DNA of 64,000 nucleotides, from positions 5,737 to 69,736 of the forward strand of contig JAUYHA010000135.1 of NCBI GenBank assembly GCA_030690265.1, given 5' to 3'. Under the pieces are notes generated by a model, which saw only the letters and a list, made by a program, of their open reading frames with translations, was not told where the DNA came from and searched no databases. The DNA is from Dehalococcoidales bacterium. GTDB taxonomy: Bacteria > Chloroflexota > Dehalococcoidia > Dehalococcoidales > UBA2162. Both the position numbers and the translations under genes were made by a program. Of this stretch, positions 1,823 to 41,754 are shown in pieces. Every line of letters begins with the position of its first letter. The first letter of the stretch is position 1.

Positions 1823-2770
1823 ATGAAACGCAAGGATTTTCTTTCCATATCCGACATCAGTGGTGAGGATATTCGCTCGCTCATCTCTGATGCTGTTGCG
1901 AGCAAAGATAAAAGCTGGCTTTCTTCACTGGAAAGAAAAACGCTGGCTATTCTTTTTGAGAAACCTTCGCTAAGGACGAGGGTTAGCTTTGAAATGGCTA
2001 TGCGGCAGCTGGGTGGGGAGACCATCTATCTATCACCTGCTGAGGTCGGGCTGGGAAAACGGGAATCAGTGCCTGATGTAGCCCGGGTGCTCAGCCGCTA
2101 TGTGGATGCCCTTGCCGTTCGTACCTTTTCCCATCAGACTCTGGAAACTCTGGCTGAATATGCCGCTGTGCCGGTGATTAACGCCCTTTCTGACCTGGAA
2201 CACCCCTGTCAGGCGCTGGCTGACCTGCTTACCATTTATGAGAAAAAGAGGGAGCTAAAAGGCTTGAGGCTGGCTTTCATTGGTGATGGCAACAATGTAG
2301 CTCACAGCCTGCTGCTGGCCGCTGCCCTCGCCGGGATGAATTTCAGGATTGCTTCTCCGGCGGGTTACGCTGTCCAGGAAAGAATATTAAGTCAGGCTCA
2401 GGATTATGCTGCCGCCAGTGATGCCGAGATATTCTGCACCGAGGAACCGCAGCTGGCAGTCAACGGGGCGGATATAGTTTATACCGATGTCTGGACGAGT
2501 ATGGGACAGGAGGCTGAAGCCGAAAAGCGACGCAAAGTATTTGCTAATTTCCAGGTAAATGATGAGCTGATGGCTTTTGCCAAAGAAGATGCTATACTGA
2601 TGCACCCCTTGCCGGCCCATCGCGGTGAGGAGGTCAGCGAAACCATTCTGGATAGTCTGCAGTCGGTGGTATTTGACCAGGCTGAGAATAGACTGCACGC
2701 CCAGAAGGCAGTGCTATTACGAATGCTGGGCGGTCTGGATGTACCGCTCACCGGCTTACGCTGGAGGTGA
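1823..2770 (+). CDS. argF: ornithine carbamoyltransferase
   Basis: Motifs SLRTRVSFE, HPCQALADLLT, FIGDGNNVAHSL and DVWTSMGQE. The ATG at 1823 (MKRKDFLSI) is preferred over the ORF-track start at 1766. Confidence 0.9.
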   Translation: MKRKDFLSISDISGEDIRSLISDAVASKDKSWLSSLERKTLAILFEKPSLRTRVSFEMAMRQLGGETIYLSPAEVGLGKRESVPDVARVLSRYVDALAVRTFSHQTLETLAEYAAVPVINALSDLEHPCQALADLLTIYEKKRELKGLRLAFIGDGNNVAHSLLLAAALAGMNFRIASPAGYAVQERILSQAQDYAAASDAEIFCTEEPQLAVNGADIVYTDVWTSMGQEAEAEKRRKVFANFQVNDELMAFAKEDAILMHPLPAHRGEEVSETILDSLQSVVFDQAENRLHAQKAVLLRMLGGLDVPLTGLRWR

Positions 2771-2776
2771 AGACAT

Positions 2777-3511
2777 ATGTTAAGGACGATATTAAACCGG
2801 GGATGGTCTGCTATCTTAATCGCGGTGCTGGCTGTGCTTGGCGTTTTCTATGAGTTGCCAGTTGTGGTTGTCGCTTCCGGTGCGGGCAGTATTCTGGTCG
2901 TCGGCTTGACCGTAGCGGCAGTCAGCGCCAGGGAGAAACAGCTTGAGCTTTTATCATTCAAGCTCAAGCAACTGGCCGGGTATTTTAACCGCCGCTTTAT
3001 GGGTAATTCTTCGCTGTCTGTCTTCTCTATTATTGATACTCTCTTCAATATTGATAGCCCACAGCTGTGGGATTGGGCACGTGCCTGTGACGTCTCTCAG
3101 CGGATTTTCAATACCTGGTGCAGCAGCTTTATCAATAGGTTAGAGAGTGATGTCAGGACCAGGAGGTTTGATGTTTACCTGCGTACCTACCTGAACGAGC
3201 TCTGGCTGGTCAACAGTCACTATTATGAGTTCATCGAGCAGTTCTGCGAGATAGCGGAAAGGACCGGGCTTCTTCGGGAAACTATCGAGCAGTATAACCG
3301 CTTCGCTGTGGAATACAACTCTTTTGTCCAGAATTTCCAGGAAACAATTGCTGAGCTGAGGAAAGCCGCCGGAACAGAGATTGAAGCTCCAAGCGTCAAG
3401 CTTGCCAGGGAACTATCAGTGGTCAAGTTTCCTCAGACCAGTCAAGAAAGTCAGGCTAAACCCGCTAAGCCCGGGCAAGGGCTGGGATACTTTTTGGAAA
3501 AGGACAAGTAA
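2777..3511 (+). CDS. hypothetical membrane-anchored protein
   Basis: 244-aa ORF with two N-terminal hydrophobic helices followed by a helical soluble domain. No family was recognised. Confidence 0.5.
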   Translation: MLRTILNRGWSAILIAVLAVLGVFYELPVVVVASGAGSILVVGLTVAAVSAREKQLELLSFKLKQLAGYFNRRFMGNSSLSVFSIIDTLFNIDSPQLWDWARACDVSQRIFNTWCSSFINRLESDVRTRRFDVYLRTYLNELWLVNSHYYEFIEQFCEIAERTGLLRETIEQYNRFAVEYNSFVQNFQETIAELRKAAGTEIEAPSVKLARELSVVKFPQTSQESQAKPAKPGQGLGYFLEKDK

Positions 3512-3526
3512 ATAAATGTCAACCTT

Positions 3527-3805
3527 ACCCCCTTTTCCCTCACCTTCAAAGGAGAGGGGTTCACCCTGAAGGGTTCTCCCTGAAGGGGAGAATAAAGAAA
3601 GAGGGGCGAAGTCCCTCTTAAAAAATATTCTCTGAGACTGTTCGAGGTTGTCACTCTGAGCACGTTCACTTCGTTCACTCTGACGATAATCGGAACGAGT
3701 TCAGTGTAAACTCCGCGAAGAATCTCGGGGTAGGGTTGGGGGCTCGACTCCTACCCCTCCCCAGATTCTTCTGTCGTCCTTCCTCGGACTCCTTCATAAT
3801 GACAG
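3527..3805. repeat. composite repeat block (PAL-B hairpins plus a degenerate PAL-A element)
   Basis: Shares ccttcaaaggagagggg and aagaggggcgaagtccctctt with the other PAL-B copies. Shares cactctgacgataatcggaacgagt, the reverse complement of the 26-mer at 1430-1490. Inverted gaagaatct..agattcttc is present, and the block ends in cataatgaca. Confidence 0.7.
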
Positions 3806-3869
3806 GGGATGGGGTTATAATTAAAAATAGGGTGAGCGTTTGGTAAATACAAGGCTTCTGGAGGTAAGT

Positions 3870-5183
3870 GTGGATAAGCCGGTGGTGGCGATTATTGGCA
3901 GGCAGAATGTGGGTAAGTCTACCCTGTTGAATCGACTGGCAGGTGAACGCATCGCTATCACTGCCGATTTGCCGGGGACAACCCGCGACCGAATCTTAGC
4001 TAATGTTTCCTGGCAGGGGACTGAGTTTACCCTGGTTGATACCGGCGGACTGGAGATAAAGCCCGAGACTACTATTGCCCAAGAGGTGAAGGAGCAGGTA
4101 GAGGCGGCTATCACTGAGGCTGATGTCATTATTTTTCTGGTGGATGTCAGGGACGGGATAACCCCGATTGACCTGGAAATAGCTGCTCTGCTTCGTCAGG
4201 CGAGTAAACCTTTACTGCTGGTGGTTAATAAGGCGGACAATGACAGGCTTGAGACTGAGGCAGTGGAGTTTTATGAATTAGGGCTGGGCGAGCCGCTGGT
4301 AATTTCAGCCTATCACGGCAGAGGCACTGCTGAGCTGCTGGATAAAATCACTGCCTGTTTACCGGTACCTCAACCGGTCGAAGCCGGACCGGAGATGATA
4401 AAGGTAGCCATTGTCGGCAGGCCCAATGTGGGTAAGTCAATGCTGGTAAATGCTCTCCTGGGTGAAGAGCGGGCTATCGTTAATGAGACTCCGGGAACAA
4501 CCCGCGATGCCATAGACACATTACTTGACTTTCAAGGGCAAAGTATGCTACTAATTGACACCGCCGGTATCAGGCGGCGGGGGCGGTTGGAAGCTGGAAT
4601 AGAAAAATACAGCGTCATCCGTTCCCTGCGGGCTATTGACCGGGCTGATATAAGTTTGTTAATTATTGATGCTGCCGAGCCTATTACGGCTCAGGATATG
4701 CATATAACCGGCTTCATTCAACAGATGGCGAAAGGAATCATATTAATAGTCAATAAATGGGACCTGGTTAAGGATAAGAATATCAAGGTATGGGATAAAT
4801 ACATCAGAGACCAGGTCAAGTTTTTGCCTTATGCCCCGATACTATATACATCTGCCAAACTCGGACAAGGAATAGACAGAATTATGCCCCAGGTATGCCA
4901 GGTTTATCAGGAAAGACAGAAACGTTTCCCCACCGCCACAGTCAATAGAGTTGTTCAGCAGGCACTGGCGGCACACAGTCTACCCCGAAAGGGCAACAGG
5001 CAACTAAAAGTCTTGTCGGCTACTCAGGCTGATATAAACCCGCCGACCTTTGTCTTTTTTGTCAATGATACCAAGCTAATCCATTTTTCCTATCAACGCT
5101 ACCTGGAAAACAAGCTGCGCCAGTCTTTTGGCTTCACTGGCAATCCGCTTCGCCTGGTCTTTAAGAAAAGGGGAGAATCATGA
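3870..5183 (+). CDS. der: ribosome-biogenesis GTPase Der (EngA), two G domains
   Basis: Two P-loops (GRQNVGKST and GRPNVGKSM) plus DTGG/DTAG and NKAD/NKWD. GTG at 3870 with GGAGG at 3860..3864 is preferred over the TTG at 3840. Confidence 0.9.
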   Translation: MDKPVVAIIGRQNVGKSTLLNRLAGERIAITADLPGTTRDRILANVSWQGTEFTLVDTGGLEIKPETTIAQEVKEQVEAAITEADVIIFLVDVRDGITPIDLEIAALLRQASKPLLLVVNKADNDRLETEAVEFYELGLGEPLVISAYHGRGTAELLDKITACLPVPQPVEAGPEMIKVAIVGRPNVGKSMLVNALLGEERAIVNETPGTTRDAIDTLLDFQGQSMLLIDTAGIRRRGRLEAGIEKYSVIRSLRAIDRADISLLIIDAAEPITAQDMHITGFIQQMAKGIILIVNKWDLVKDKNIKVWDKYIRDQVKFLPYAPILYTSAKLGQGIDRIMPQVCQVYQERQKRFPTATVNRVVQQALAAHSLPRKGNRQLKVLSATQADINPPTFVFFVNDTKLIHFSYQRYLENKLRQSFGFTGNPLRLVFKKRGES

Positions 5184-29343: not shown

Positions 29344-30033
29344 TTGATAACCCTTAAAACAGGTAAGAGCACAAAACTTTTACTCGCTATTTTATTATTT
29401 CTGTTAGCAATCTGGCTAATAAGCTATATTGCCCATCTACCCCGGGAAGTCAGCTTTGCCGATGCCAATCTTGAGCTGGCGGTCAGGGCGCGAATAAACA
29501 AGCCCGCAGGCACCCTGCTCACCTCAGACCTGGAAGGCATTACTACCTTATCGGCTATAAGCCTAAACATCACCGATTTGAGCGGACTGGAAAAGTTTAC
29601 CAGCCTTAGAAGTCTCAGCCTGGCGGATAACAACATCAGCGATATCTCTCCGCTGGCTTCGTTGACCGGGCTCAGGACCCTCGTCTTGTTCAACAACCGG
29701 ATAAAGGATATATCACCGCTGGCTAAGCTCAAGCAGCTCAGCCGGCTTCACCTGATGGGAAACGAGGTTGAGGATATCTCGCCGCTGGCTTCGGGCAATA
29801 AATTGTATTCGCTGGTGCTTTCGGAAAACCGGATTACCGATGTCTCGGTACTAGCCTTACATAAAAATCTGACCAATCTCTACCTGCGGGATAACCGGAT
29901 AATAGATATATCGGCGCTGACTTCGCTGTCCCACCTCGAGGTGCTCGGCCTGGAACGAAACCCTCTTAACGAAGAAGGAAAAAACACCCTCATCCCCCGG
30001 CTCCGGGAAAGAGGGGTGGAGGTAAGGTGGTAG
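29344..30033 (+). CDS. leucine-rich repeat (internalin-like) protein with an N-terminal membrane anchor
   Basis: About eight 22-residue repeats of the form L..L..L.L..N.I.DISPL. N-terminal hydrophobic helix. Confidence 0.8.
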   Translation: MITLKTGKSTKLLLAILLFLLAIWLISYIAHLPREVSFADANLELAVRARINKPAGTLLTSDLEGITTLSAISLNITDLSGLEKFTSLRSLSLADNNISDISPLASLTGLRTLVLFNNRIKDISPLAKLKQLSRLHLMGNEVEDISPLASGNKLYSLVLSENRITDVSVLALHKNLTNLYLRDNRIIDISALTSLSHLEVLGLERNPLNEEGKNTLIPRLRERGVEVRW

Positions 30034-30411
30034 GGGGAGGAGAAACAACAGGCGTTCTTGTTGTAAATAAGTTTCCCGTTATGAGGAAACATACGATGAT
30101 GTATTATTCCTGGTTGAGGCAGCGCCAGGACTAAATGCTGGCTGGGTAACATTTCTATCGTATGTAACTAGCTTGAACCTGGTAAAGTATTCTAAAGCTC
30201 TTAACGGGTTAACAATAGCTTTGCTAATAGTCGGTATAGGGACAACAATTCTGGCTTTAGCCCAATTTCTTATTTTATAAATTTTACTTCGGCAGTGGGA
30301 TTTTCTCTCTTTTTTGCTCAACCCGACATAACAATAATAGTGCGAACCAAAGCATACCAATATAACGGTTTACATAATTTATCCTGGAATAGGGGGTAGC
30401 TACATCAAAAA

Positions 30412-31065
30412 TTAAAGTACGGTTTTGATTTTATTAGCTTCATTAAGAACTTTTATTGTATATTCGCTGAGCTTTTTTCTCTCTCCCCAATCCTCATCCA
30501 GATTCGCCTTATCCATTGACTTTTCCAGATATTCAATATAGTCTCCTAACCCTTTCCCAAGCTCTTGTACCACATTATCAAGTTCATCATTGAAACTATG
30601 AGATATGATTCTTATGTGTTCACCCTTTATGTTTAACGCTCGACATCCAAGTAAAATATTTCGAAAATACATTTTCAGCATTCTCGGATTATCGATTAAA
30701 GCTGCGAAATTAGAATATTCTTTCACGCCATAGGTGGGGACATCTATTGCCCACTCAATAATCTCATTTAGTAGGCGTTCTTTTCGGTCTCTGTTCTCTC
30801 TATCAATTTCGTCCCTTCTGTGTTCCTGTTCTCGTAGATTACTTTGTTCAGTGGCATTAAAAGTAGCGAGCGCTAGGAATAGTGTAACTAAAGCGGTTAC
30901 TGCCATGAATAAAGCAGCCACCTTGGCAGGATACTCTGGGCTGTGCTCCAGTGGAAGCCATAGGAGATAGAAATCTGAACCTATAATAACGATGATAACA
31001 GATAGTATTATTATCATACCGATAGTGATGTATTTCATACTTTTCATGTCCCCATTATACCACAA
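30412..31065 (-). CDS. hypothetical two-TM protein in an AT-rich segment
   Basis: 217-aa ORF with two hydrophobic helices followed by a charged helical domain. No family was recognised. Alternative ATG starts are at 31047 and 31038. Confidence 0.5.
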   Translation of the reverse strand: MWYNGDMKSMKYITIGMIIILSVIIVIIGSDFYLLWLPLEHSPEYPAKVAALFMAVTALVTLFLALATFNATEQSNLREQEHRRDEIDRENRDRKERLLNEIIEWAIDVPTYGVKEYSNFAALIDNPRMLKMYFRNILLGCRALNIKGEHIRIISHSFNDELDNVVQELGKGLGDYIEYLEKSMDKANLDEDWGERKKLSEYTIKVLNEANKIKTVL

Positions 31066-32193: not shown

Positions 32194-32242
32194 AGCTCCC
32201 TCCTCCCTATCCTGAAATTTGTTTCGCTGTCTCCATTATAAT

Positions 32243-32578
32243 TTAACCAATGAAATACCTGATACCCAAAAGAGCAACTTCAGCCGCAAATAAAGCTGTA
32301 AACCATTTAATGGAATTTCGGGCAACTATTGCCGGCAGGAAGATATCAACAACAGAGCCTTTTTCGGCTCCGAGTTTCTCGGCAAGTGCTGCTAGCGGGC
32401 ATTTCCAATTATTAAAGATTAAAACAATACCTTCAATAAGAATAGCCGCCAGGGCTATAACTAAAAGCCAGTTGAAGACCCCCGCCAGCCCGGCATATAG
32501 AATATAAAGGAGACTGGCTAACATGAAAAAGAATATCAGCGAGTGAATCGATTTAATAAGGAACACTCTGTTCAGCAT
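32243..32578 (-). CDS. small three-TM membrane protein (possibly DUF2784-like)
   Basis: 111-aa hydrophobic ORF with a conserved-looking WKCPLAALAEKLG loop. The family assignment is tentative. Confidence 0.45.
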   Translation of the reverse strand: MLNRVFLIKSIHSLIFFFMLASLLYILYAGLAGVFNWLLVIALAAILIEGIVLIFNNWKCPLAALAEKLGAEKGSVVDIFLPAIVARNSIKWFTALFAAEVALLGIRYFIG

Positions 32579-32816
32579 GCCAAAGATTATAAGTCAAGAA
32601 AAAAGGAATAACAACACTGAAAGAGAGTGTCAAAAAATGAGCGATAAATTGCCCCTTTATCACCCTTAAAGGGTAGTTTACCCTTCTCAAGAATTTTCAG
32701 GGGCTTATTTTTTGATTTTAGGAGCCCTTTTTCTCAGGTTAGACCGGGGAGATGGCTACTTTACCATAAAAGGGTAACCTTGTCCCCATCTTCACCGTTA
32801 TGCTATACTTGCTACC

Positions 32817-34976: not shown

Positions 34977-34999
34977 AAAAACGGAAACAAATTGTATCT

Positions 35000-35072
35000 G
35001 GGCCGCTAGCTCAACTGGCAGAGCAGCTGACTCTTAATCAGCAGGTTACAGGTTCGATTCCTGTGCGGCTCA
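35000..35072 (+). tRNA. tRNA-Lys (anticodon CTT)
   Basis: Cloverleaf: acceptor GGGCCGC/GCGGCUC, D stem GCUC/GAGC, anticodon stem GCUGA/UCAGC with loop cuCUUaa, T arm ACAGG-UUCGAUU-CCUGU. Confidence 0.9.
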
Positions 35073-35089
35073 TATTCAACTTTCTCTTC

Positions 35090-35120
35090 TTGACAGTCAA
35101 TGACCCCTGAGCCTTAATAT
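35090..35120 (+). promoter_or_regulatory. candidate promoter of the retron operon
   Basis: TTGACA at 35090..35095, then TTAATA/TAATAT at 35114..35120 (18-19 nt spacing). It begins 18 nt after the tRNA-Lys 3' end. Confidence 0.4.
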
Positions 35121-35274
35121 TAATAGTCAAAAATCACAATTTTTCTACTCAACAGATTGCATAACGTAATAACTGGGTGTAGATTATAGGAAAAGGCTAG
35201 AGTGGTTCGCATGGCATACGACTGGAAGAATAAACTCTGTTAGGGAAGTACAGAAATTTAGGGAAAAGCATTCC

Positions 35275-36183
35275 ATGATGTTACTTAATAATGTCGCGAA
35301 GGTTATTGCCGAAGGATTTACAAATGATTTAGAGGTATCCGCGGTCACTGTATTTTTGGCTGGAGGTAGTACTGAACGCAGAACCAGCATCAGGCCACAA
35401 TTGCGTAAGGAATTGAGAGGTCGTCGTTACGTCCGTGGGTATGATGTCCTTTACCCAGAAGAGCTTTTTGATGAGCTTATGGGAAGACAGCCTGACCGCG
35501 ACTTATTAAGTCTCGAAAATATGCTAGCTGGTAGTGCACATGCAATCATAATAATTGTAGAAAGCCCAGGTGCCATTGCCGAGCTCGGAGCATTCGCGAA
35601 TAGTGAACAACTGCGTCCTAAGCTGATTGCTATTGTCGACAAGAGATATAGAGGACGCAGAACCTTTATCATGTTAGGTCCTGTCGCACAACTTCGAAAT
35701 TTCCGTCAGGGGGCTGTCATTATGCATGATTTTGGAAAGCCCGATATATCAAAACTAGCAGAAGATGTACGTCGGTCTGTAAGAGGGATAATTAAAGACA
35801 CAAAGGTCGACGCAAGTCTAAGCAACCCGATTCGTGCACAATACTTCTTACTAGCTAGCCTTTTTGTGGCTGAGCCCATAGAGTTATCATATTTGATAAA
35901 ACTCTTGACCGCAACAGATGAATGTGATTTAGCGCTTGCTAATGTGGTTGCTACCACTGCTTTAAATATACTACTCCGTCAAGGAGAAGTTGCTTTAGAG
36001 GAAACTTCGTATCACCTAACTCCAAAAGGCAGACAACGTCTGACTGACATTATTAGAGATTCAAAGGATAGTCGCAAGTTTATTCAATTGTTTGATAAAT
36101 GCCGAGTTGATATACTAAATGCTGCTAGGAGCGGGTCACAGATATGGTATAAAGATATGCTTGTTAAGGGGGTATCATCTTAG
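35275..36183 (+). CDS. retron type II-A-like effector: N-terminal nucleoside 2-deoxyribosyltransferase-like (N-glycosidase) domain plus a C-terminal winged-helix-like domain
   Basis: 302 aa. VFLAGG...IIIIVESPGAIAELGAF resembles the Rossmann-like NDT fold with its conserved Glu. The C-terminal part (LLASLFVAEP..LLRQGEVALEE..YHLTPKGRQRL) looks like a wHTH. It lies directly upstream of the retron RT. Confidence 0.7.
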   Translation: MMLLNNVAKVIAEGFTNDLEVSAVTVFLAGGSTERRTSIRPQLRKELRGRRYVRGYDVLYPEELFDELMGRQPDRDLLSLENMLAGSAHAIIIIVESPGAIAELGAFANSEQLRPKLIAIVDKRYRGRRTFIMLGPVAQLRNFRQGAVIMHDFGKPDISKLAEDVRRSVRGIIKDTKVDASLSNPIRAQYFLLASLFVAEPIELSYLIKLLTATDECDLALANVVATTALNILLRQGEVALEETSYHLTPKGRQRLTDIIRDSKDSRKFIQLFDKCRVDILNAARSGSQIWYKDMLVKGVSS

Positions 36184-36321
36184 AACGGCCTGGACTTCGT
36201 GTTTGGGTCAGTGGGTAGCGATGCAGCTGCCCGTGTCGAAAGCTGGTCACCGATTCATCCAAATAGATACGTTAGCAGTATCTATTTGGACGATATAATT
36301 GAGAGTAAGATGTTACCCCCT
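36167..36321 (+). ncRNA. candidate retron msr-msd non-coding RNA
   Basis: a1 AGGGGGTATCATCTTA (36167..36182) pairs with a2 TAAGATGTTACCCCCT (36306..36321) at 15 of 16 positions. G36183 lies directly after a1 in a UUAG context. A 7-bp hairpin is at 36213..36232. A perfect 13-bp stem (36258..36270 with 36278..36290) lies in the msd position. The RT start is 30 nt downstream. Confidence 0.65.
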
Positions 36322-36350
36322 CCACCCTTAACTATTCTGGAGGTCGACTA

Positions 36351-37316
36351 GTGACTCAAGGTAGACATTATATCCTAAATCCCCTTATTCCTAAGCTGGA
36401 TAATCTGCGAGACCTCAGCACCGCAACACATTTATCACCCGGACTACTTTTCAGCCTCGCTAAACATAATAGTTGGTACTATCGGGTTTTTACAATTCCG
36501 AAATCTGCAGGTGGAGCAAGAGAGATTGCTGAACCAGCTAGACCTATGAAAGCAGTCCAATATTGGATCCTGAAGAATATCTTGCAGTATCTACCTCTTC
36601 ATCCAGCAGCGACAGGGTTCCGAAAAGACCAAAATGTCTTGAAAAATGCTCAGGTTCACAAAAACAATAAATACTTTTTATGCTTTGACCTGAATGATTT
36701 CTTCCCTTCAATTAAATATCCTTTCGTATATACCATATTCAATAGCCTCGGATATAATATGCATGTCAGCCATATACTAGCTTCTCTTTGCACATTTAAT
36801 GGTTACTTGCCACAAGGAGGTGTTACATCTCCTACCTTATCCAACCTTTGCTGCGTGAGATTAGACCGTCGAATTAGTGGCTATTGTGGGCTTCGTAATA
36901 TCGCTTATACACGCTACGCAGATGATATGACTTTTTCCTCCATGAATTCAAAGAGACTCGTCGGTCTCTATCAGCGAGCAAAAACTATAGTCGAGGATGA
37001 ACATTTTATCCTTAACGAAGCAAAAACTAGATATATGGGTCCTGCACGTAGGAGGAAAATTACTGGTCTAATTGTCGGTGACGGACAAGCTGGAATTGGA
37101 CGAAAATTAGAGAGAAAATTAAGAGCGTCCATATACAATTTAAGTCAAGCCAAACAATTAGCTGGTATTAGTTGGACTGATGAGCAACTTAAAGGGTGGA
37201 TTTCTTATATACATTCTGTTGACCCGAACCGCCACCAGCGTATGATTAAATATATTCGTGATCTATCTTCTAGGCTGAATTTGCCCATGTTGAAATCAAG
37301 GCTGGGCATTAATTAA
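36351..37316 (+). CDS. retron-type reverse transcriptase
   Basis: 321 aa. Motifs NAQVH (NAxxH), FDLNDFFPSI, LPQGGVTSPTLSN, YTRYADDMTFS (YADD) and RKITGLIVG (VTG-like). GTG start with GGAGG at 36339..36343. Confidence 0.9.
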   Translation: MTQGRHYILNPLIPKLDNLRDLSTATHLSPGLLFSLAKHNSWYYRVFTIPKSAGGAREIAEPARPMKAVQYWILKNILQYLPLHPAATGFRKDQNVLKNAQVHKNNKYFLCFDLNDFFPSIKYPFVYTIFNSLGYNMHVSHILASLCTFNGYLPQGGVTSPTLSNLCCVRLDRRISGYCGLRNIAYTRYADDMTFSSMNSKRLVGLYQRAKTIVEDEHFILNEAKTRYMGPARRRKITGLIVGDGQAGIGRKLERKLRASIYNLSQAKQLAGISWTDEQLKGWISYIHSVDPNRHQRMIKYIRDLSSRLNLPMLKSRLGIN

Positions 37317-37480
37317 TCATGGTATTAAGAAACCTATAATCGAAGCAGCAAAATAAAATTGCGTTTTCGCTTTAGGATGAATGCAATCTGCTAACATTTT
37401 TGCTGACGAACATCCTGCCATTGTTCTAAATTACGAACTCAAAACTCTTTCTAAAGGTTCTACTTTCTATCATAAACGGC

Positions 37481-38882: not shown

Positions 38883-41060
38883 TCAAGAACTAACTTCACC
38901 GAGCTCCCTTTCTATCCTCATAGCACTGAGCACACCCGGTATCCTCTCAATTTTATCCAGTAGCCGGTTTAGCTGTACCAGGTTTGCCGTCTCTAAAGTA
39001 ATGAAAATTGATACGCTCCCGTCATCATTATTGGTCAGGCTTACAGCAACAATGTTTATCTTTTCCTCGGCAACAAGGATGGTAATATCACGCATCAGCC
39101 CTACCCTGTCCCAGGCTTGAACCTGAATCGGGACCGGATACAGCGAGCTTCTCTCCCCCCACTCCACCGAAATTAACCTTTCCCTCTCATCTTCATTGAC
39201 CACATTATAACAGTCCTGGCGGTGCACCGTTACGCCCCGGGTGCGAGTAATATAGCCGATAATACTATCTCCCGGCAACGGGTGACAGCATTGGGCCAGA
39301 TGGGTGAGCAAGTCTCCTACTCCCTCTACCTTAACTGCCGAAATATTTTCCTTCGGCGGTGCCACTTCAACTAGCCGGGGCTGTTGCTGCTGGGCGGCAA
39401 ATTTCACCACAATCTGATGGGTAGTAATATCGCCACAACCAATGGCGCCATAGAAATCAGCCAGGCTAGCATACTGGAACAGCCTGGCTAACTTCTCCCG
39501 CTCCATAGACGCCACGCCCAGTTGCCTCATCGTTTTCTCCAGAAGCTCCCGGCCGCGCTCAATATTTTCCGTCCGTTCCTGCTTTTTGAACCACTGCCTT
39601 ATCTTTACTTTAGCGTGAGATGTTTTCACAAAACCCAGGGCAGGGTTAAGCCAGTCCCGGCTCGGTCCCCTTCCCCCCTTAACAGACATAATTTCAATGA
39701 CATCCCCGTTCTTAAGGTGATAGCTAAGAGGAACCAGGCGACCGTTTACTTTTGCCCCGCTGCAGTTATGTCCCAGATCAGTATGAACATGATAGGCGAA
39801 ATCAAGAGGGGTGGAGCCGATGGGCAAATCCTTTATCTCCCCCTTGGGCGTAAAAACAAAAACCTGGTCATTGAAGATATCGGTCTTCACTGATTCCAGG
39901 AATTCTTCGGCACCGCTCAGTTCCCGATGCCAATCGATTAACTGGCGCAACCAGCCTACCCTTTCCTCCAGGTTAATGTCCTGCTTACCGCCTTCTTTAT
40001 AGCGCCAGTGTGAAGCTACGCCGAACTCGGCAACCCGATGCATCTGATAGGTGCGAATCTGTATCTCTAAAGGAGTTACACCCTGATACATCACCGTGGT
40101 ATGTAAAGATTGATAACCGTTAGATTTGGGATTAGCAATAAAGTCATTAAACTGGGCAAGTATGGGGTGCCACAAATTATGAATCACCCCCAGAGCGGTA
40201 TAACAATCAGAGAGGCTATTAACCAGGACCCTGAGGGCAAAAAGGTCATAGATATCGTTAAAGTCTTTGCCTTGAGCAGCGTATTTTTCCATTTTCTGGT
40301 GAATGCTATAGATATGCTTGGGCCTGCCCAGTATCTCGGCATTTAGACCTACCCGCTCAAACTCCCGCTTCAGCTCCGGGATTACCTGTTTGATAAAGTC
40401 CTCACGCCGGAGGTGCTGACCAGCCACCAGCTGGACAACCTGGTGATATTTTCTTGGCTGCAGATAGCGAAAGGAGAGGTCCTCTAATTGCCATTTAAGT
40501 TCCCATATTCCCAGGCGGTGAGCCAGTGGTGCGTAAACCTCAGCGGTCTCCTGAGCAATAGTATGTCGTTTTTCTGGAGGTAGAGCATCTAAGGTTTGCA
40601 TATTATGTAATCGGTCAGCCAGCTTAATAAATACCACCCGCAGGTCTTCAGCCATCGCCACCAGCATTTTTCTCAGGTTCTCCACCTGCTCTCCCCGTGC
40701 TGCGATACTGCCCCGCTGTTTTGCTTCTATCGGCCCTCGTAAGGGAACCTTACCCAGCTTGGTAGTGCCGTCCACCAGCCTGGCTACCTCCGAACCAAAG
40801 CTAGCTTCAATCTCCGCAACAGGTATGCCACAGTTCTCGGGCACATCATGGAGCAACGCCGCAACCAGGGAGCCGGTATCAAGTTGAAGCTCAGCCAGAG
40901 TCAAAGCAACCTGTAACGGGTGCTCCAGGTAAGGTTCGCCTGACTTACGCATCTGACCCTCATGTGCCTTGCTGGCATAGCTGTAGGCATCTTCAACTAA
41001 AGCTATTTTTTCCAGGGGAAGATACCCCTGGACTTTCTCTCTCAATTGACTGAAAGCCAC
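38883..41060 (-). CDS. rel: bifunctional (p)ppGpp synthetase/hydrolase (RelA/SpoT homolog)
   Basis: HD hydrolase (HPLQVALTL..LHDVPE), synthetase block (YQSLHTTV), TGS domain and C-terminal ACT domain. The in-frame GTG at 41060 (VAFSQLREKV) is preferred. The ORF-track start at 41294 would overlap the divergent flavoprotein gene. Confidence 0.9.
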   Translation of the reverse strand: MAFSQLREKVQGYLPLEKIALVEDAYSYASKAHEGQMRKSGEPYLEHPLQVALTLAELQLDTGSLVAALLHDVPENCGIPVAEIEASFGSEVARLVDGTTKLGKVPLRGPIEAKQRGSIAARGEQVENLRKMLVAMAEDLRVVFIKLADRLHNMQTLDALPPEKRHTIAQETAEVYAPLAHRLGIWELKWQLEDLSFRYLQPRKYHQVVQLVAGQHLRREDFIKQVIPELKREFERVGLNAEILGRPKHIYSIHQKMEKYAAQGKDFNDIYDLFALRVLVNSLSDCYTALGVIHNLWHPILAQFNDFIANPKSNGYQSLHTTVMYQGVTPLEIQIRTYQMHRVAEFGVASHWRYKEGGKQDINLEERVGWLRQLIDWHRELSGAEEFLESVKTDIFNDQVFVFTPKGEIKDLPIGSTPLDFAYHVHTDLGHNCSGAKVNGRLVPLSYHLKNGDVIEIMSVKGGRGPSRDWLNPALGFVKTSHAKVKIRQWFKKQERTENIERGRELLEKTMRQLGVASMEREKLARLFQYASLADFYGAIGCGDITTHQIVVKFAAQQQQPRLVEVAPPKENISAVKVEGVGDLLTHLAQCCHPLPGDSIIGYITRTRGVTVHRQDCYNVVNEDERERLISVEWGERSSLYPVPIQVQAWDRVGLMRDITILVAEEKINIVAVSLTNNDDGSVSIFITLETANLVQLNRLLDKIERIPGVLSAMRIERELGEVSS

Positions 41061-41184
41061 GACTGACCTGCCTCTAATCAGGGATGAGTATAGTATAGCC
41101 CAAGATAATAGCAGTGTAAAATCTGGCGGTTTGCCTCTGGCTGTGATAAGCGTTAAACTATAAGACAAATAAAGGGGTAAGAAG

Positions 41185-41754
41185 ATGAAGGTTCTTGGTA
41201 TAGCGGGTAGTCCGCGGCGGGATGGTAACACAGATATACTGCTGGCTGAACTGATGAGAGGTGCCGCCAGCAAAGGGGCTGAGGTTAAGACCATCGTCCT
41301 GGCTGACCTGAAAATTTCTCCCTGCGAGCACTGCGATAACTGCCTTAAAACGGGAGAATGTAAGATTCAGGATGATATGCAGACTATCTATCAGGAATTC
41401 GAGCGGGCAGATGTAGTTGTGCTGGCTTCTCCTATCCAGTTTAGCGGGATAACCGCCCCGATGAAGGCGATGATTGACCGTTTCCAGTCACGGTGGGCGA
41501 GAAAATACGTGCTGAAAAAACCGCCCCTGGGTGACGAGCGGCCACGAAAGGGGTTCTTTGTTTCCGTAGGGGGCAGGAAAAATGCAAATTTTGAGCCGTC
41601 TCTGGTAATGATAAAAACCATCTTCGCGGTCCTGAATATCAGCTATACCGGCGAGTTGCTCTTTTTTAAAATCGACAAAAAAGGGGCTATAGCCAAACAT
41701 CCTGACGCCCTGCGCCAGGCTTTTCTCGCCGGACAAAAGCTGGTGGAAAGCTGA
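41185..41754 (+). CDS. flavodoxin-like NAD(P)H-dependent FMN reductase / iron-sulfur flavoprotein family
   Basis: MKVLGIAGSPRRDGNT, a Cys cluster CEHCDNCLKTGEC, and VLASPIQFSGITAPMKAMIDR. Confidence 0.75.
   Translation: MKVLGIAGSPRRDGNTDILLAELMRGAASKGAEVKTIVLADLKISPCEHCDNCLKTGECKIQDDMQTIYQEFERADVVVLASPIQFSGITAPMKAMIDRFQSRWARKYVLKKPPLGDERPRKGFFVSVGGRKNANFEPSLVMIKTIFAVLNISYTGELLFFKIDKKGAIAKHPDALRQAFLAGQKLVES

Follow-up and report, generated by a model that had tools for sequence, protein, structure and literature searches.

Type II-A3 retrons have the gene order effector, ncRNA and reverse transcriptase (RT), designated 'Nuc_deoxy+Retron' (PMC7736814). The closest described system is Retron-Eco1 of E. 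coli B (Ec86; II-A3; 7V9X, 7XJG, 8QBK-8QBM), in whose locus the effector gene spans 2091..3014, the ncRNA 3001..3170 and the RT gene 3234..4139. The reference mechanism of Eco1 has been described in detail (PMC12673091; bioRxiv 10.1101/2023.08.16.553469; PMC7736814), and it is for Eco1 only that an RT-msDNA-effector filament, the hydrolysis of NAD(P)+ and defence by abortive infection are known (bioRxiv 10.1101/2023.08.16.553469; PMC12673091). The RT of Retron-Sen2 (St85) from Salmonella, a II-A1 retron, belongs to clade 1, and its ncRNA is of the type common to type I-A retrons (PMC7736814); elsewhere its genes are described as arranged msr-msd, ORF, RT (PMC11701397).

Here we describe a retron found in a stretch of 64,000 nucleotides (64 kb; hereafter the window) from a Dehalococcoidales (Chloroflexota) MAG. 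We hold with high confidence that positions 35275..37316 constitute an intact type II-A3 retron, i.e., one of the E. coli Retron-Eco1/Ec86 subtype, and nothing contradicts this classification. All three parts are complete and follow each other in the order effector (35275..36183), ncRNA (36167..36321) and RT (36351..37316). An earlier note on this DNA had pointed to this order, which is not a distinguishing trait, as the E. coli Ec86 locus is ordered in the same manner. By analogy with Eco1, the locus would be expected to produce msDNA, to encode a toxic effector and to provide defence against phages.

The Locus and Its Surroundings

The retron and its immediate borders comprise the following features.

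34999..35073, + strand: tRNA-Lys(CTT) (ARAGORN; Rfam tRNA, 68.1 bits)
35074..35274, + strand: AT-rich leader, possible promoter region (read from the sequence)
35275..36183, + strand: effector gene, 302 aa, ATG start
36167..36321, + strand: retron ncRNA (msr-msd), 155 nt (covariance model, 160.5 bits)
36339..36343, + strand: ribosome-binding site GGAGG, 7 nt ahead of the GTG of the RT gene (read from the sequence)
36351..37316, + strand: retron RT gene, 321 aa, GTG start
37317..37480, no strand assigned: AT-rich trailer from the RT stop codon to a convergent enoyl-CoA hydratase gene, no function given

The tRNA-Lys(CTT) gene lies outside the retron proper and forms the left border of a low-GC stretch. 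The earlier observation that the DNA becomes AT-richer for about 2.4 kb directly 3' of this gene is correct, since the GC content of 35074..37480 is 0.409, compared with 0.500 over the window as a whole and 0.518 and 0.504 in the flanks; among 2407-nt stretches taken every 50 nt over the window, this one has the lowest GC. The two open reading frames also stand, both on the + strand, at the coordinates first given for them. The gene beyond the trailer, ECH_1 (enoyl-CoA hydratase), is convergent with the RT gene, and the retron copy sits among housekeeping genes, adjoining a tRNA. This adjacency is specific to the present genome, as a tRNA stands beside the retron in none of 14 related retron loci (0/14). 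In the leader, a perfect TTGACA is found by eye at 35090..35095, with TA-rich hexamers 17-19 nt further on, and the region 35074..35274 may accordingly be regarded as holding a candidate promoter. Rule-based consensus scans returned no promoter site in the leader and no terminator-like site in the trailer.

The Effector

The effector combines an N-terminal nucleoside-deoxyribosyltransferase (NDT)-like N-glycosidase domain with a C-terminal winged-helix domain, and carries the motifs VFLAGG (at residue 26) and ESPGAIAELGAF (at residue 96). This fold had been proposed in the earlier note and is borne out by the AlphaFold model of the protein (pLDDT 87), which Foldseek superimposed on the Retron-Eco1 effector (8qbl_E / 8qbk_E) with a TM-score of 0.75 over 295 columns covering both domains; no structure other than that of the Eco1 effector was returned by this search at E <= 0.001. 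At the sequence level, the Ec86 effector in the PDB is matched with E 1.3e-33. The type II-A effector architecture that had likewise been suggested agrees with the best PADLOC model, NDT_II-A PDLC02930 (2.5e-68), as well as with the Eco1 effector fold over both domains. NCBIfam STM3845_fam is matched with 137.7 bits (cut-off 100), and PF28093 (STM3845) is listed in the precomputed annotation of the identical protein, GenBank MDP2730683.1. Residue mapping equates E103 with the catalytic E106 of Ec86 and D66 with Ec86 D69, E103 being invariant among 60 homologues. As the effector is only ~29% identical to that of Ec86, its substrate and its mode of activation could differ.

The Reverse Transcriptase

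The succession of GGAGG, spacer and start codon ahead of the RT gene is also present in four other loci (L002, L003, L005 and L086). The encoded protein is identical in sequence to GenBank MDP2730684.1 and contains NAQVH (residues 99-103), FDLNDFFPSI (starting at 112), LPQGGVTSPTLSN (starting at 153), YTRYADDMTFS (starting at 186, with the catalytic YADD at 189-192) and RKITGLIV (starting at 235, with ITG, a variant of VTG, at 237-239). The retron-type motifs are therefore present where they were first read, and NAQVH, YADD and ITG align with the same motifs of the Ec86 RT. The protein stops 80 residues past the palm domain and has neither a maturase nor an endonuclease nor an RNase H extension.

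Profile searches matched the RT to Pfam RVT_1 (9.8e-24), to NCBIfam retron_St85_RT (284 bits, cut-off 235) and, best among the PADLOC models, to RT_II-A PDLC02941 (378 bits, 8e-114; next model 290 bits). Its nearest solved RT is that of Ec86, aligned over residues 10-318 of the window protein (E 1.5e-69; next 8e-32). Judged by the nearest solved RT and the best PADLOC model, the protein would belong to the Ec86 clade (clade 9, Mestre et al.). The earlier note had remarked that the well-studied members are enterobacterial, but the family is not mainly so: 813 RT homologues at E <= 1e-40 come from many phyla, and those named by NCBI as members of the family include proteins from Chloroflexota.

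The Retron RNA

The earlier note had placed a structured spacer between the two genes. The structure is real, as region 36160..36330 folds as RNA with -71.3 kcal/mol vs -45.7 +/- 4.2 in shuffled sequences (z = -6.1; 0/200 shuffles equal), although the limits have to be shifted to 36167..36321, so that the RNA starts inside the effector gene and shares its first 17 nt with the 3' end of that gene. As far as present tools show, the extent of this RNA had not been defined before. The RNA is made up of the following elements.

36167..36182, + strand: a1, 16 nt, which forms the 5' half of the closing inverted repeat with 36306..36321 (94% complementarity)
36183, + strand: predicted branching guanosine, the G of a conserved TTAG straight after a1
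36187..36209, + strand: msr hairpin 1 (MFE fold and consensus structure; 5/7 pairs with compensatory changes)
36213..36232, + strand: msr hairpin 2 (MFE fold and consensus structure; 99.1% of cells paired)
36233..36243, + strand: conserved linker GTGTCGAAAGC following msr hairpin 2
36243..36304, + strand: predicted msd template, ~62 nt, the ends being approximate and placed by alignment to Ec86
36255..36293, + strand: msd stem-loop with 16-bp arms (94% complementary) and a 7-nt loop
36306..36321, + strand: a2, the 3' partner of a1 in the closing repeat, with a conserved AGAGTAAG just before it

A covariance model built from six sequences of the clade of the window copy gave one match directly upstream of the RT gene, on the RT strand, in each of 16 loci. 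In the resulting alignment 93.1% of cells were paired and 37/43 pairs showed compensatory changes (0/500 shuffles as high; 28-46% of cells paired in slid controls), counts that favour the structure of the model because the alignment was fitted to that very structure. The covariance model was preferred to a plain MAFFT alignment with the distant RNAs and that of Ec86, in which the variable hairpin and some of the 5' ends were out of register. The same six-sequence model recovered the ncRNA of Ec86 over its full length as the top match in the E. coli locus (L166, 3001..3171), with a modest score (19.5 bits, E 5.7e-5 in a 6-kb search with filters off, the E-values of this calibration being rough). 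A simple search for complementary arms, independent of any model, also recovered a1 and a2. No Rfam retron RNA family matched the ncRNA at either permissive or gathering thresholds.

Arm a1 overlaps the final codons of the effector gene, and all 14 pairs of the a1/a2 helix have changed on both sides among the relatives. G36183 is the last base of the TAG stop codon of the effector and corresponds in position to the Ec86 G directly 3' of a1 (L166, 3014); the A and the G of TTAG are invariant in the alignment, Ec86 included. This guanosine is the predicted branch point, the 2'-OH of which would prime DNA synthesis. In this clade, the stop codon of the effector frequently coincides with the predicted branching G, at the base of the a1/a2 stem. 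The best conserved part of the RNA consists of msr hairpin 2 and the linker, with several positions invariant even against Ec86; in Eco1, the RT holds the equivalent hairpin and linker, which set the termination point (PMC12673091).

The msDNA is predicted to be the reverse complement of approximately 36243..36304. Folded as DNA, the msd stem-loop has a z-score of -4.6. All 15 pairs of this hairpin show compensatory changes, its sequence and length being wholly different between relatives, and the window hairpin contains neither CCWGG nor GATC sites.

Intactness and Classification of the Retron

It could be asked whether the locus is an inactive remnant, with genes that look intact and with msDNA production or defence lost, e.g., because a promoter or host factors are gone. 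The consensus scans, which identified neither promoter nor terminator, and the foreign-looking GC content of the cassette would fit such a state. However, both reading frames are full length against the family profiles, every catalytic and invariant residue is retained, and the helices of the RNA are intact, including an a1/a2 stem of 94% complementarity. Moreover, continued selection is indicated by relatives at ~80% nucleotide identity, in which neither reading frame is broken and the RNA structure persists. We therefore regard inactivity as very improbable.

We give hardly any credence to the proposal that this is a type II-A1 retron similar to Sen2/St85, in which the RNA would precede the effector and the RT would fall into the clade shared with type I-A retrons. 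NCBIfam does call both proteins 'retron St85 family', and the domain architecture of the effector is the same in II-A1 and II-A3 (PMC7736814), but the St85 name cannot separate the subtypes because NCBI gives it to Ec86 too. The ncRNA lies between effector and RT, as in the Ec86 locus; this is the only match of the covariance model in the window, the 200 nt ahead of the effector gene giving none, and among the longest inverted repeats listed for a 3-kb region there is no local pair in 35074..35274. The RT is matched to Ec86 with 1.5e-69 vs only ~5e-26 to the type I-A RT Ec78, a representative of clade 1, and the proteins of Ec86 themselves choose the same PADLOC sub-models as those of the window. 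The earlier note had assigned the locus to type II-A with both Eco1 and Sen2 as models; the assignment stands in its Eco1-like II-A3 form, whereas the resemblance to the II-A1 retron Sen2 does not extend to the place of the ncRNA or to the RT, which is nearest to Ec86.

We reject the alternative that an RT of the group II intron, DGR or Abi classes, or another defence-associated RT, stands here beside an unrelated gene. All these RTs share the RVT_1 core, but the best 25 PADLOC matches are all retron RT models, and the group II intron model TIGR04416 (58.3 bits, cut-off 300), Drt2 (28.4 bits, cut-off 390) and Drt3a (27.4 bits, cut-off 200) score far below their cut-offs. The protein has no maturase (X) domain and no endonuclease extension, and both sequence and structure show the product of the adjacent gene to be a homologue of the Ec86 effector.

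Origin of the Cassette

The type II-A3 retron forms a 2.05-kb cassette (~35264..37319) that was probably acquired horizontally, since nowhere else in the window is the GC content as low and since its close copies occur in unrelated genomic contexts. Nucleotide similarity to the relatives is confined to 35264..37319, leader and trailer not being shared. The right border carries no direct repeat matching the 3' end of the tRNA, and no integrase is present, nor would a gene for one fit into the interval from the tRNA to the enoyl-CoA hydratase gene; neither an integrase nor a flanking repeat thus accounts for the arrival of the cassette. An empty site was sought in related Chloroflexota via RelA/SpoT homologues, but synteny is lost beyond RelA and S20 (L170, L171) and precludes such a comparison. 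Close relatives come solely from metagenome contigs, and no relative above 51% identity was found in species-representative genomes. Relatives on viral contigs reach 42% identity only and hence give no sign of a phage-borne clade.

Proposed Mechanism and Significance

Following the Eco1 model, the locus would be transcribed and its ncRNA would fold, after which the RT would bind the conserved second msr hairpin together with the linker. With the 2'-OH of G36183 as primer, the RT would read the template from ~36304 to ~36243 and so produce branched RNA-DNA, the DNA part of which would be a hairpin of ~62 nt. The complex of RT and msDNA may then bind the effector and hold it inactive until a phage product modifies or destroys the msDNA hairpin. 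The effector freed in this way would hydrolyse NAD(P)+ or related nucleosides, and the infected cell would stop before the phage cycle is completed. It is unlikely that the trigger is the same as that reported for Eco1, because the msd hairpin has no CCWGG.

Within this clade, no sequence is shared between the hairpins of cassettes encoding proteins of 60-83% identity, and the lengths of these hairpins differ by more than 70 nt. One may speculate, although we consider it rather doubtful, that the msd hairpin is a fast-changing sensor, each variant being tuned to a different phage trigger, and that the overlap of stop codon and branching G couples the end of effector translation to RNA folding and thereby to antitoxin production.

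The locus adds little to the knowledge of retrons, as its type, layout and likely mechanism match those of Retron-Eco1. Both of its proteins had already been named automatically, and correctly, in GenBank (MDP2730683.1 and MDP2730684.1). What is gained is an RNA component with defined limits in a II-A3 branch outside the Proteobacteria, for which branch point and msDNA can be predicted, together with a covariance model that finds this RNA at 16 loci of several phyla where Rfam gives none. As a compact Dehalococcoidales retron with a short predicted msDNA, the cassette could also serve as a recombineering tool or for comparisons of trigger specificity.

Comparison with Known Retrons

Retron-Eco1 has the same three parts as the window copy in the same order. 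In both loci, a1 extends over the final codons of the effector gene, and the G after it comes from the TAG stop codon. The proteins of both select PDLC02930 and PDLC02941 as their best PADLOC models (the RT by a wide margin), and the models that follow for the two RTs are similarly ordered, with RT_XIII second and RT_III-A models thereafter. Over almost its full length the window RT matches that of Ec86, including the part aligned with the N-terminal segment of Ec86. The effectors share the two-domain fold and the catalytic Glu. The RNAs agree in their helices and in the junctions TTAG and GTAAG, and their second msr hairpins are similar. The differences concern the msDNA, predicted to be ~62 nt in the window vs 85-86 nt in Ec86, the msd hairpin, which is shorter and of unrelated sequence and is devoid of the CCWGG site of the Dcm trigger of Ec86, and the genomic setting: the window copy lies between housekeeping genes of a Chloroflexota MAG, whereas Ec86 resides within a P2-like prophage of E. 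coli.

Retron-Sen2 (St85, Salmonella, II-A1) resembles the window copy in the architecture of its effector (NDT-like and DNA-binding) and bears the same NCBIfam names. It differs in that the window RNA lies between effector and RT and in that the window RT is far nearer to Ec86. Close counterparts of the locus are the unstudied pairs annotated by NCBI as 'retron St85 family' in Chloroflexota and other MAGs (e.g., P0015/P0253 and P0042/P0302), which are of the same family and the same layout; in the P0015/P0253 pair, RT and effector are each 57% identical to those of the window. MDP2730683.1 and MDP2730684.1 together make up one such annotated St85-family pair, with no essential difference from the others.

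Identity and setting of the locus

At 35275..37316 a Dehalococcoidales genome carries an intact type II-A3 retron, the subtype of Eco1 (Ec86), whose function as a retron is presumed from homology. The earlier note's observation was accurate and its reading as a retron right; effector, ncRNA and reverse transcriptase (RT) are all present. In a retron RNA, complementary arms (a1 and a2) pair to close the molecule; they enclose the msr, which stays RNA, and the msd, which is copied into DNA (msDNA).

34999..35073: tRNA-Lys(CTT)
35275..36183, + strand: effector ORF, 302 aa
36167..36182, + strand: arm a1, 16 nt, 94% complementary to 36306..36321
36183, + strand: G within TTAG, directly after a1
36187..36209 and 36213..36232, + strand: msr hairpins, followed by conserved GTGTCGAAAGC
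36255..36293, + strand: 16-bp hairpin (msd), between conserved GTGTCGAAAGC and conserved AGAGTAAG
36306..36321, + strand: arm a2, pairing with a1, after conserved AGAGTAAG
36351..37316, + strand: RT ORF, 321 aa, GTG start

The two genes occupy, as had been claimed, an AT-rich stretch following tRNA-Lys: with a GC content of 0.409, 35074..37480 is poorer in GC than the window (0.500) and the flanks (~0.51), and has the minimum among all 2407-nt stretches sampled over the 64 kb. Every protein motif quoted earlier was found in its place. Ordinary genes flank the retron: TrpRS, a MaoC-like dehydratase and HisA to its left, and to its right an enoyl-CoA hydratase, ribosomal protein S20 and RelA/SpoT. 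The named best matches of RelA/SpoT all belong to Chloroflexota (73-81% identity); its ORF (38883..41294, − strand) has 803 aa as called mechanically, its homologues ~726-745 aa, and translation probably begins at an internal codon further downstream. A few kb before the retron, GC drops to 0.35-0.41 in two more patches (~30200-30800 and 32200-32800), which contain two ORFs without a Pfam match; a leucine-rich-repeat protein is close by (features at 29344..30033, + strand; 30412..31065 and 32243..32578, − strand).

Effector

The top PADLOC model of the effector is NDT_II-A PDLC02930 (2.5e-68), its NCBIfam STM3845_fam score is 137.7 bits (cut-off 100), and its sequence match in the PDB is to the Ec86 effector chains (1.3e-33). 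When a confident AlphaFold model built on the homologue alignment (pLDDT 87, pTM 0.83) was compared with the PDB by Foldseek (E <= 0.001), only Retron-Eco1/Ec86 effector chains matched, with a TM of 0.75 over 295 columns, so that both effector domains are covered. These matches bear out the fold proposed for the 302-aa protein. E106 is the catalytic residue of the Ec86 effector, in which D69 and E106 lock bound thymine in the active site (preprint, bioRxiv 10.1101/2023.08.16.553469); they map to D66 and E103 of the window protein, and E103 is invariant across 60 homologues.

Retron RNA

The RNA fold is much stabler than that of shuffled sequences (z = -6.1), and the same plan stands directly upstream of the RT in all relatives examined, down to ~40% RT identity. 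A covariance model made from the window RNA and five close relatives gave a single match in each of 16 loci, always upstream of the RT and in its orientation, the only other match being a weak reverse-strand one in the related locus L087. Standard pairs fill 93.1% of alignment cells; sliding the partners by 1-3 columns lowers this to 28-46%. Both sides have changed in 37 of the 43 pairs, and no shuffle out of 500 attains any of the observed measures. These counts come from an alignment fitted to the model's own structure, which favours that structure; the margin over the controls is large, and a plain model-free search agrees, finding complementary arms of 13-25 nt, differing in sequence, in 12 of 15 loci. 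No family of Rfam 15 detects the RNA (36167..36321) at either of two thresholds, a gap that the covariance model could fill for this II-A3 branch.

The effector TAG stop (36181..36183) has the predicted branching G as its final base, and thus the a1 arm also encodes the last residues of the effector. Ten of 16 loci, ranging from Ec86 in E. coli to Chloroflexota, share this overlap (noted, with the window, in L166 3012..3014, L005, L087, L088, L167, L168, L169 and L009); the remaining six have their stop 6-34 nt upstream. The branch position in L007 is ambiguous. The RNA outside the msd hairpin is well conserved among relatives. Among cassettes with 60-83% protein identity, by contrast with this, the msd hairpins have no sequence in common and differ in length by >70 nt (ncRNA 149 to 229 nt; window 36255..36293, L002 1076..1228, L005 1111..1262, L088 2789..2976, L168 2747..2975, L169 2745..2972).

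An inactive remnant, with which the failure of consensus scans to detect a promoter or terminator for the retron would agree, is unlikely, as both genes are full-length, catalytic residues are conserved and the RNA structure is kept among diverged copies.

Reverse transcriptase

The RT of this intact retron matches Pfam RVT_1. RT_II-A PDLC02941 is its top PADLOC model (8e-114, 378 bits; next model 290), it exceeds the NCBIfam retron_St85_RT cut-off (284 bits vs 235), and it falls far under the cut-offs of group II intron and DRT models. The retron class assigned earlier is thus upheld, and these PADLOC and NCBIfam scores exclude a non-retron RT. Among solved structures the Ec86 RT is nearest (E 1.5e-69, residues 10-318), the remaining retron RTs matching at 1e-32 or weaker. 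Of the two type II-A examples named in the earlier note, Eco1 and Sen2, the locus belongs with Eco1 (II-A3): a Sen2-like II-A1 assignment fails on the position of the RNA, between effector and RT, and on the affinity of the RT to Ec86.

Distribution and origin

GenBank has both proteins from a Dehalococcoidales MAG: MDP2730683.1 ('retron St85 family effector protein') is identical to the effector, and MDP2730684.1 ('retron St85 family RNA-directed DNA polymerase') to the RT. The proteins are thus already known under the correct family, and the find would hold no surprise for a specialist, as retrons of type II-A are widespread and the pair is already named by automatic annotation. Added here are the delineated RNA and an RNA model that works for this branch, together with two side observations, the very fast msd hairpin turnover and the frequent overlap of effector stop codon and branching G.

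At E <= 1e-40 the RT has 813 homologues, spread over many phyla, with other named Chloroflexota among them; the nearest (78-83% identity) are on short metagenome contigs. Nucleotide similarity to the nearest relatives (~80%) is confined to ~35264-35275 through 37319, and a tRNA adjoins the retron in none of 14 related loci. These limits and varied contexts make the recurring unit exactly the three-part cassette, which, with the GC dip, points to horizontal acquisition; no integrase or flanking repeat was found at the retron, so no route is indicated. RT relatives on viral contigs (IMG/VR, L172..L188) reach only 36-42% identity, none being close to the window's RT clade, and are consistent with Ec86 being prophage-borne. 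Archaeal-named MAG homologues of RT and effector (42-51% identity; P0023 and P0282, Candidatus Hodarchaeota; P0271, ANME-1 archaeon) are either true archaeal retrons or binning errors. In a Chloroflexota MAG (L167 1..6960, GCA_042581825.1) the retron adjoins Eco57I and MmeI-type methylase matches and a T5orf172 protein, all flagged weak, and its neighbourhood looks like a defence island.

Proposed mechanism

Each of the three parts is intact and has its homologue in Eco1. By analogy, the RT would bind the conserved second msr hairpin and linker (PMC12673091; bioRxiv 10.1101/2023.08.16.553469), be primed by the 2'-OH of G36183 and copy from ~36304 back to 36243, giving a hairpin-bearing DNA of ~62 nt. 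The RT-msDNA complex, which in Eco1 holds the effector as a filament (PMC12673091; bioRxiv 10.1101/2023.08.16.553469), would keep the N-glycosidase effector inactive. A phage factor altering the msDNA may then release the effector, which would hydrolyse NAD(P)+ and abort infection. Eco1 is reported to be triggered when a phage Dcm methylase acts on CCWGG in its hairpin; the window msd hairpin contains neither CCWGG nor GATC, and its trigger is thus unlikely to be the same.

Comparison with Eco1 and Sen2

Mestre et al. place Eco1 in type II-A3, RT clade 9, with the order written 'Nuc_deoxy+Retron', and Sen2/St85 in type II-A1, RT clade 1 (PMC7736814). The Ec86 ncRNA sequence used as query has matches of >=99% identity in 48 complete genomes of E. 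coli, and of 100% in the five records listed. In BLR(DE3) the Ec86 locus, inside a P2-like prophage, comprises effector (2091..3014), ncRNA (3001..3170) and RT (3234..4139). The order effector-ncRNA-RT, which the earlier note had singled out in this copy, is thus the standard Eco1 order. The same PADLOC sub-models are picked for the Ec86 and window proteins, and at both loci the effector TAG stop gives the G after a1. With filters off, the top match of the clade RNA model in the 6-kb E. coli locus is exactly the Ec86 ncRNA, at full length (19.5 bits, E 5.7e-5).
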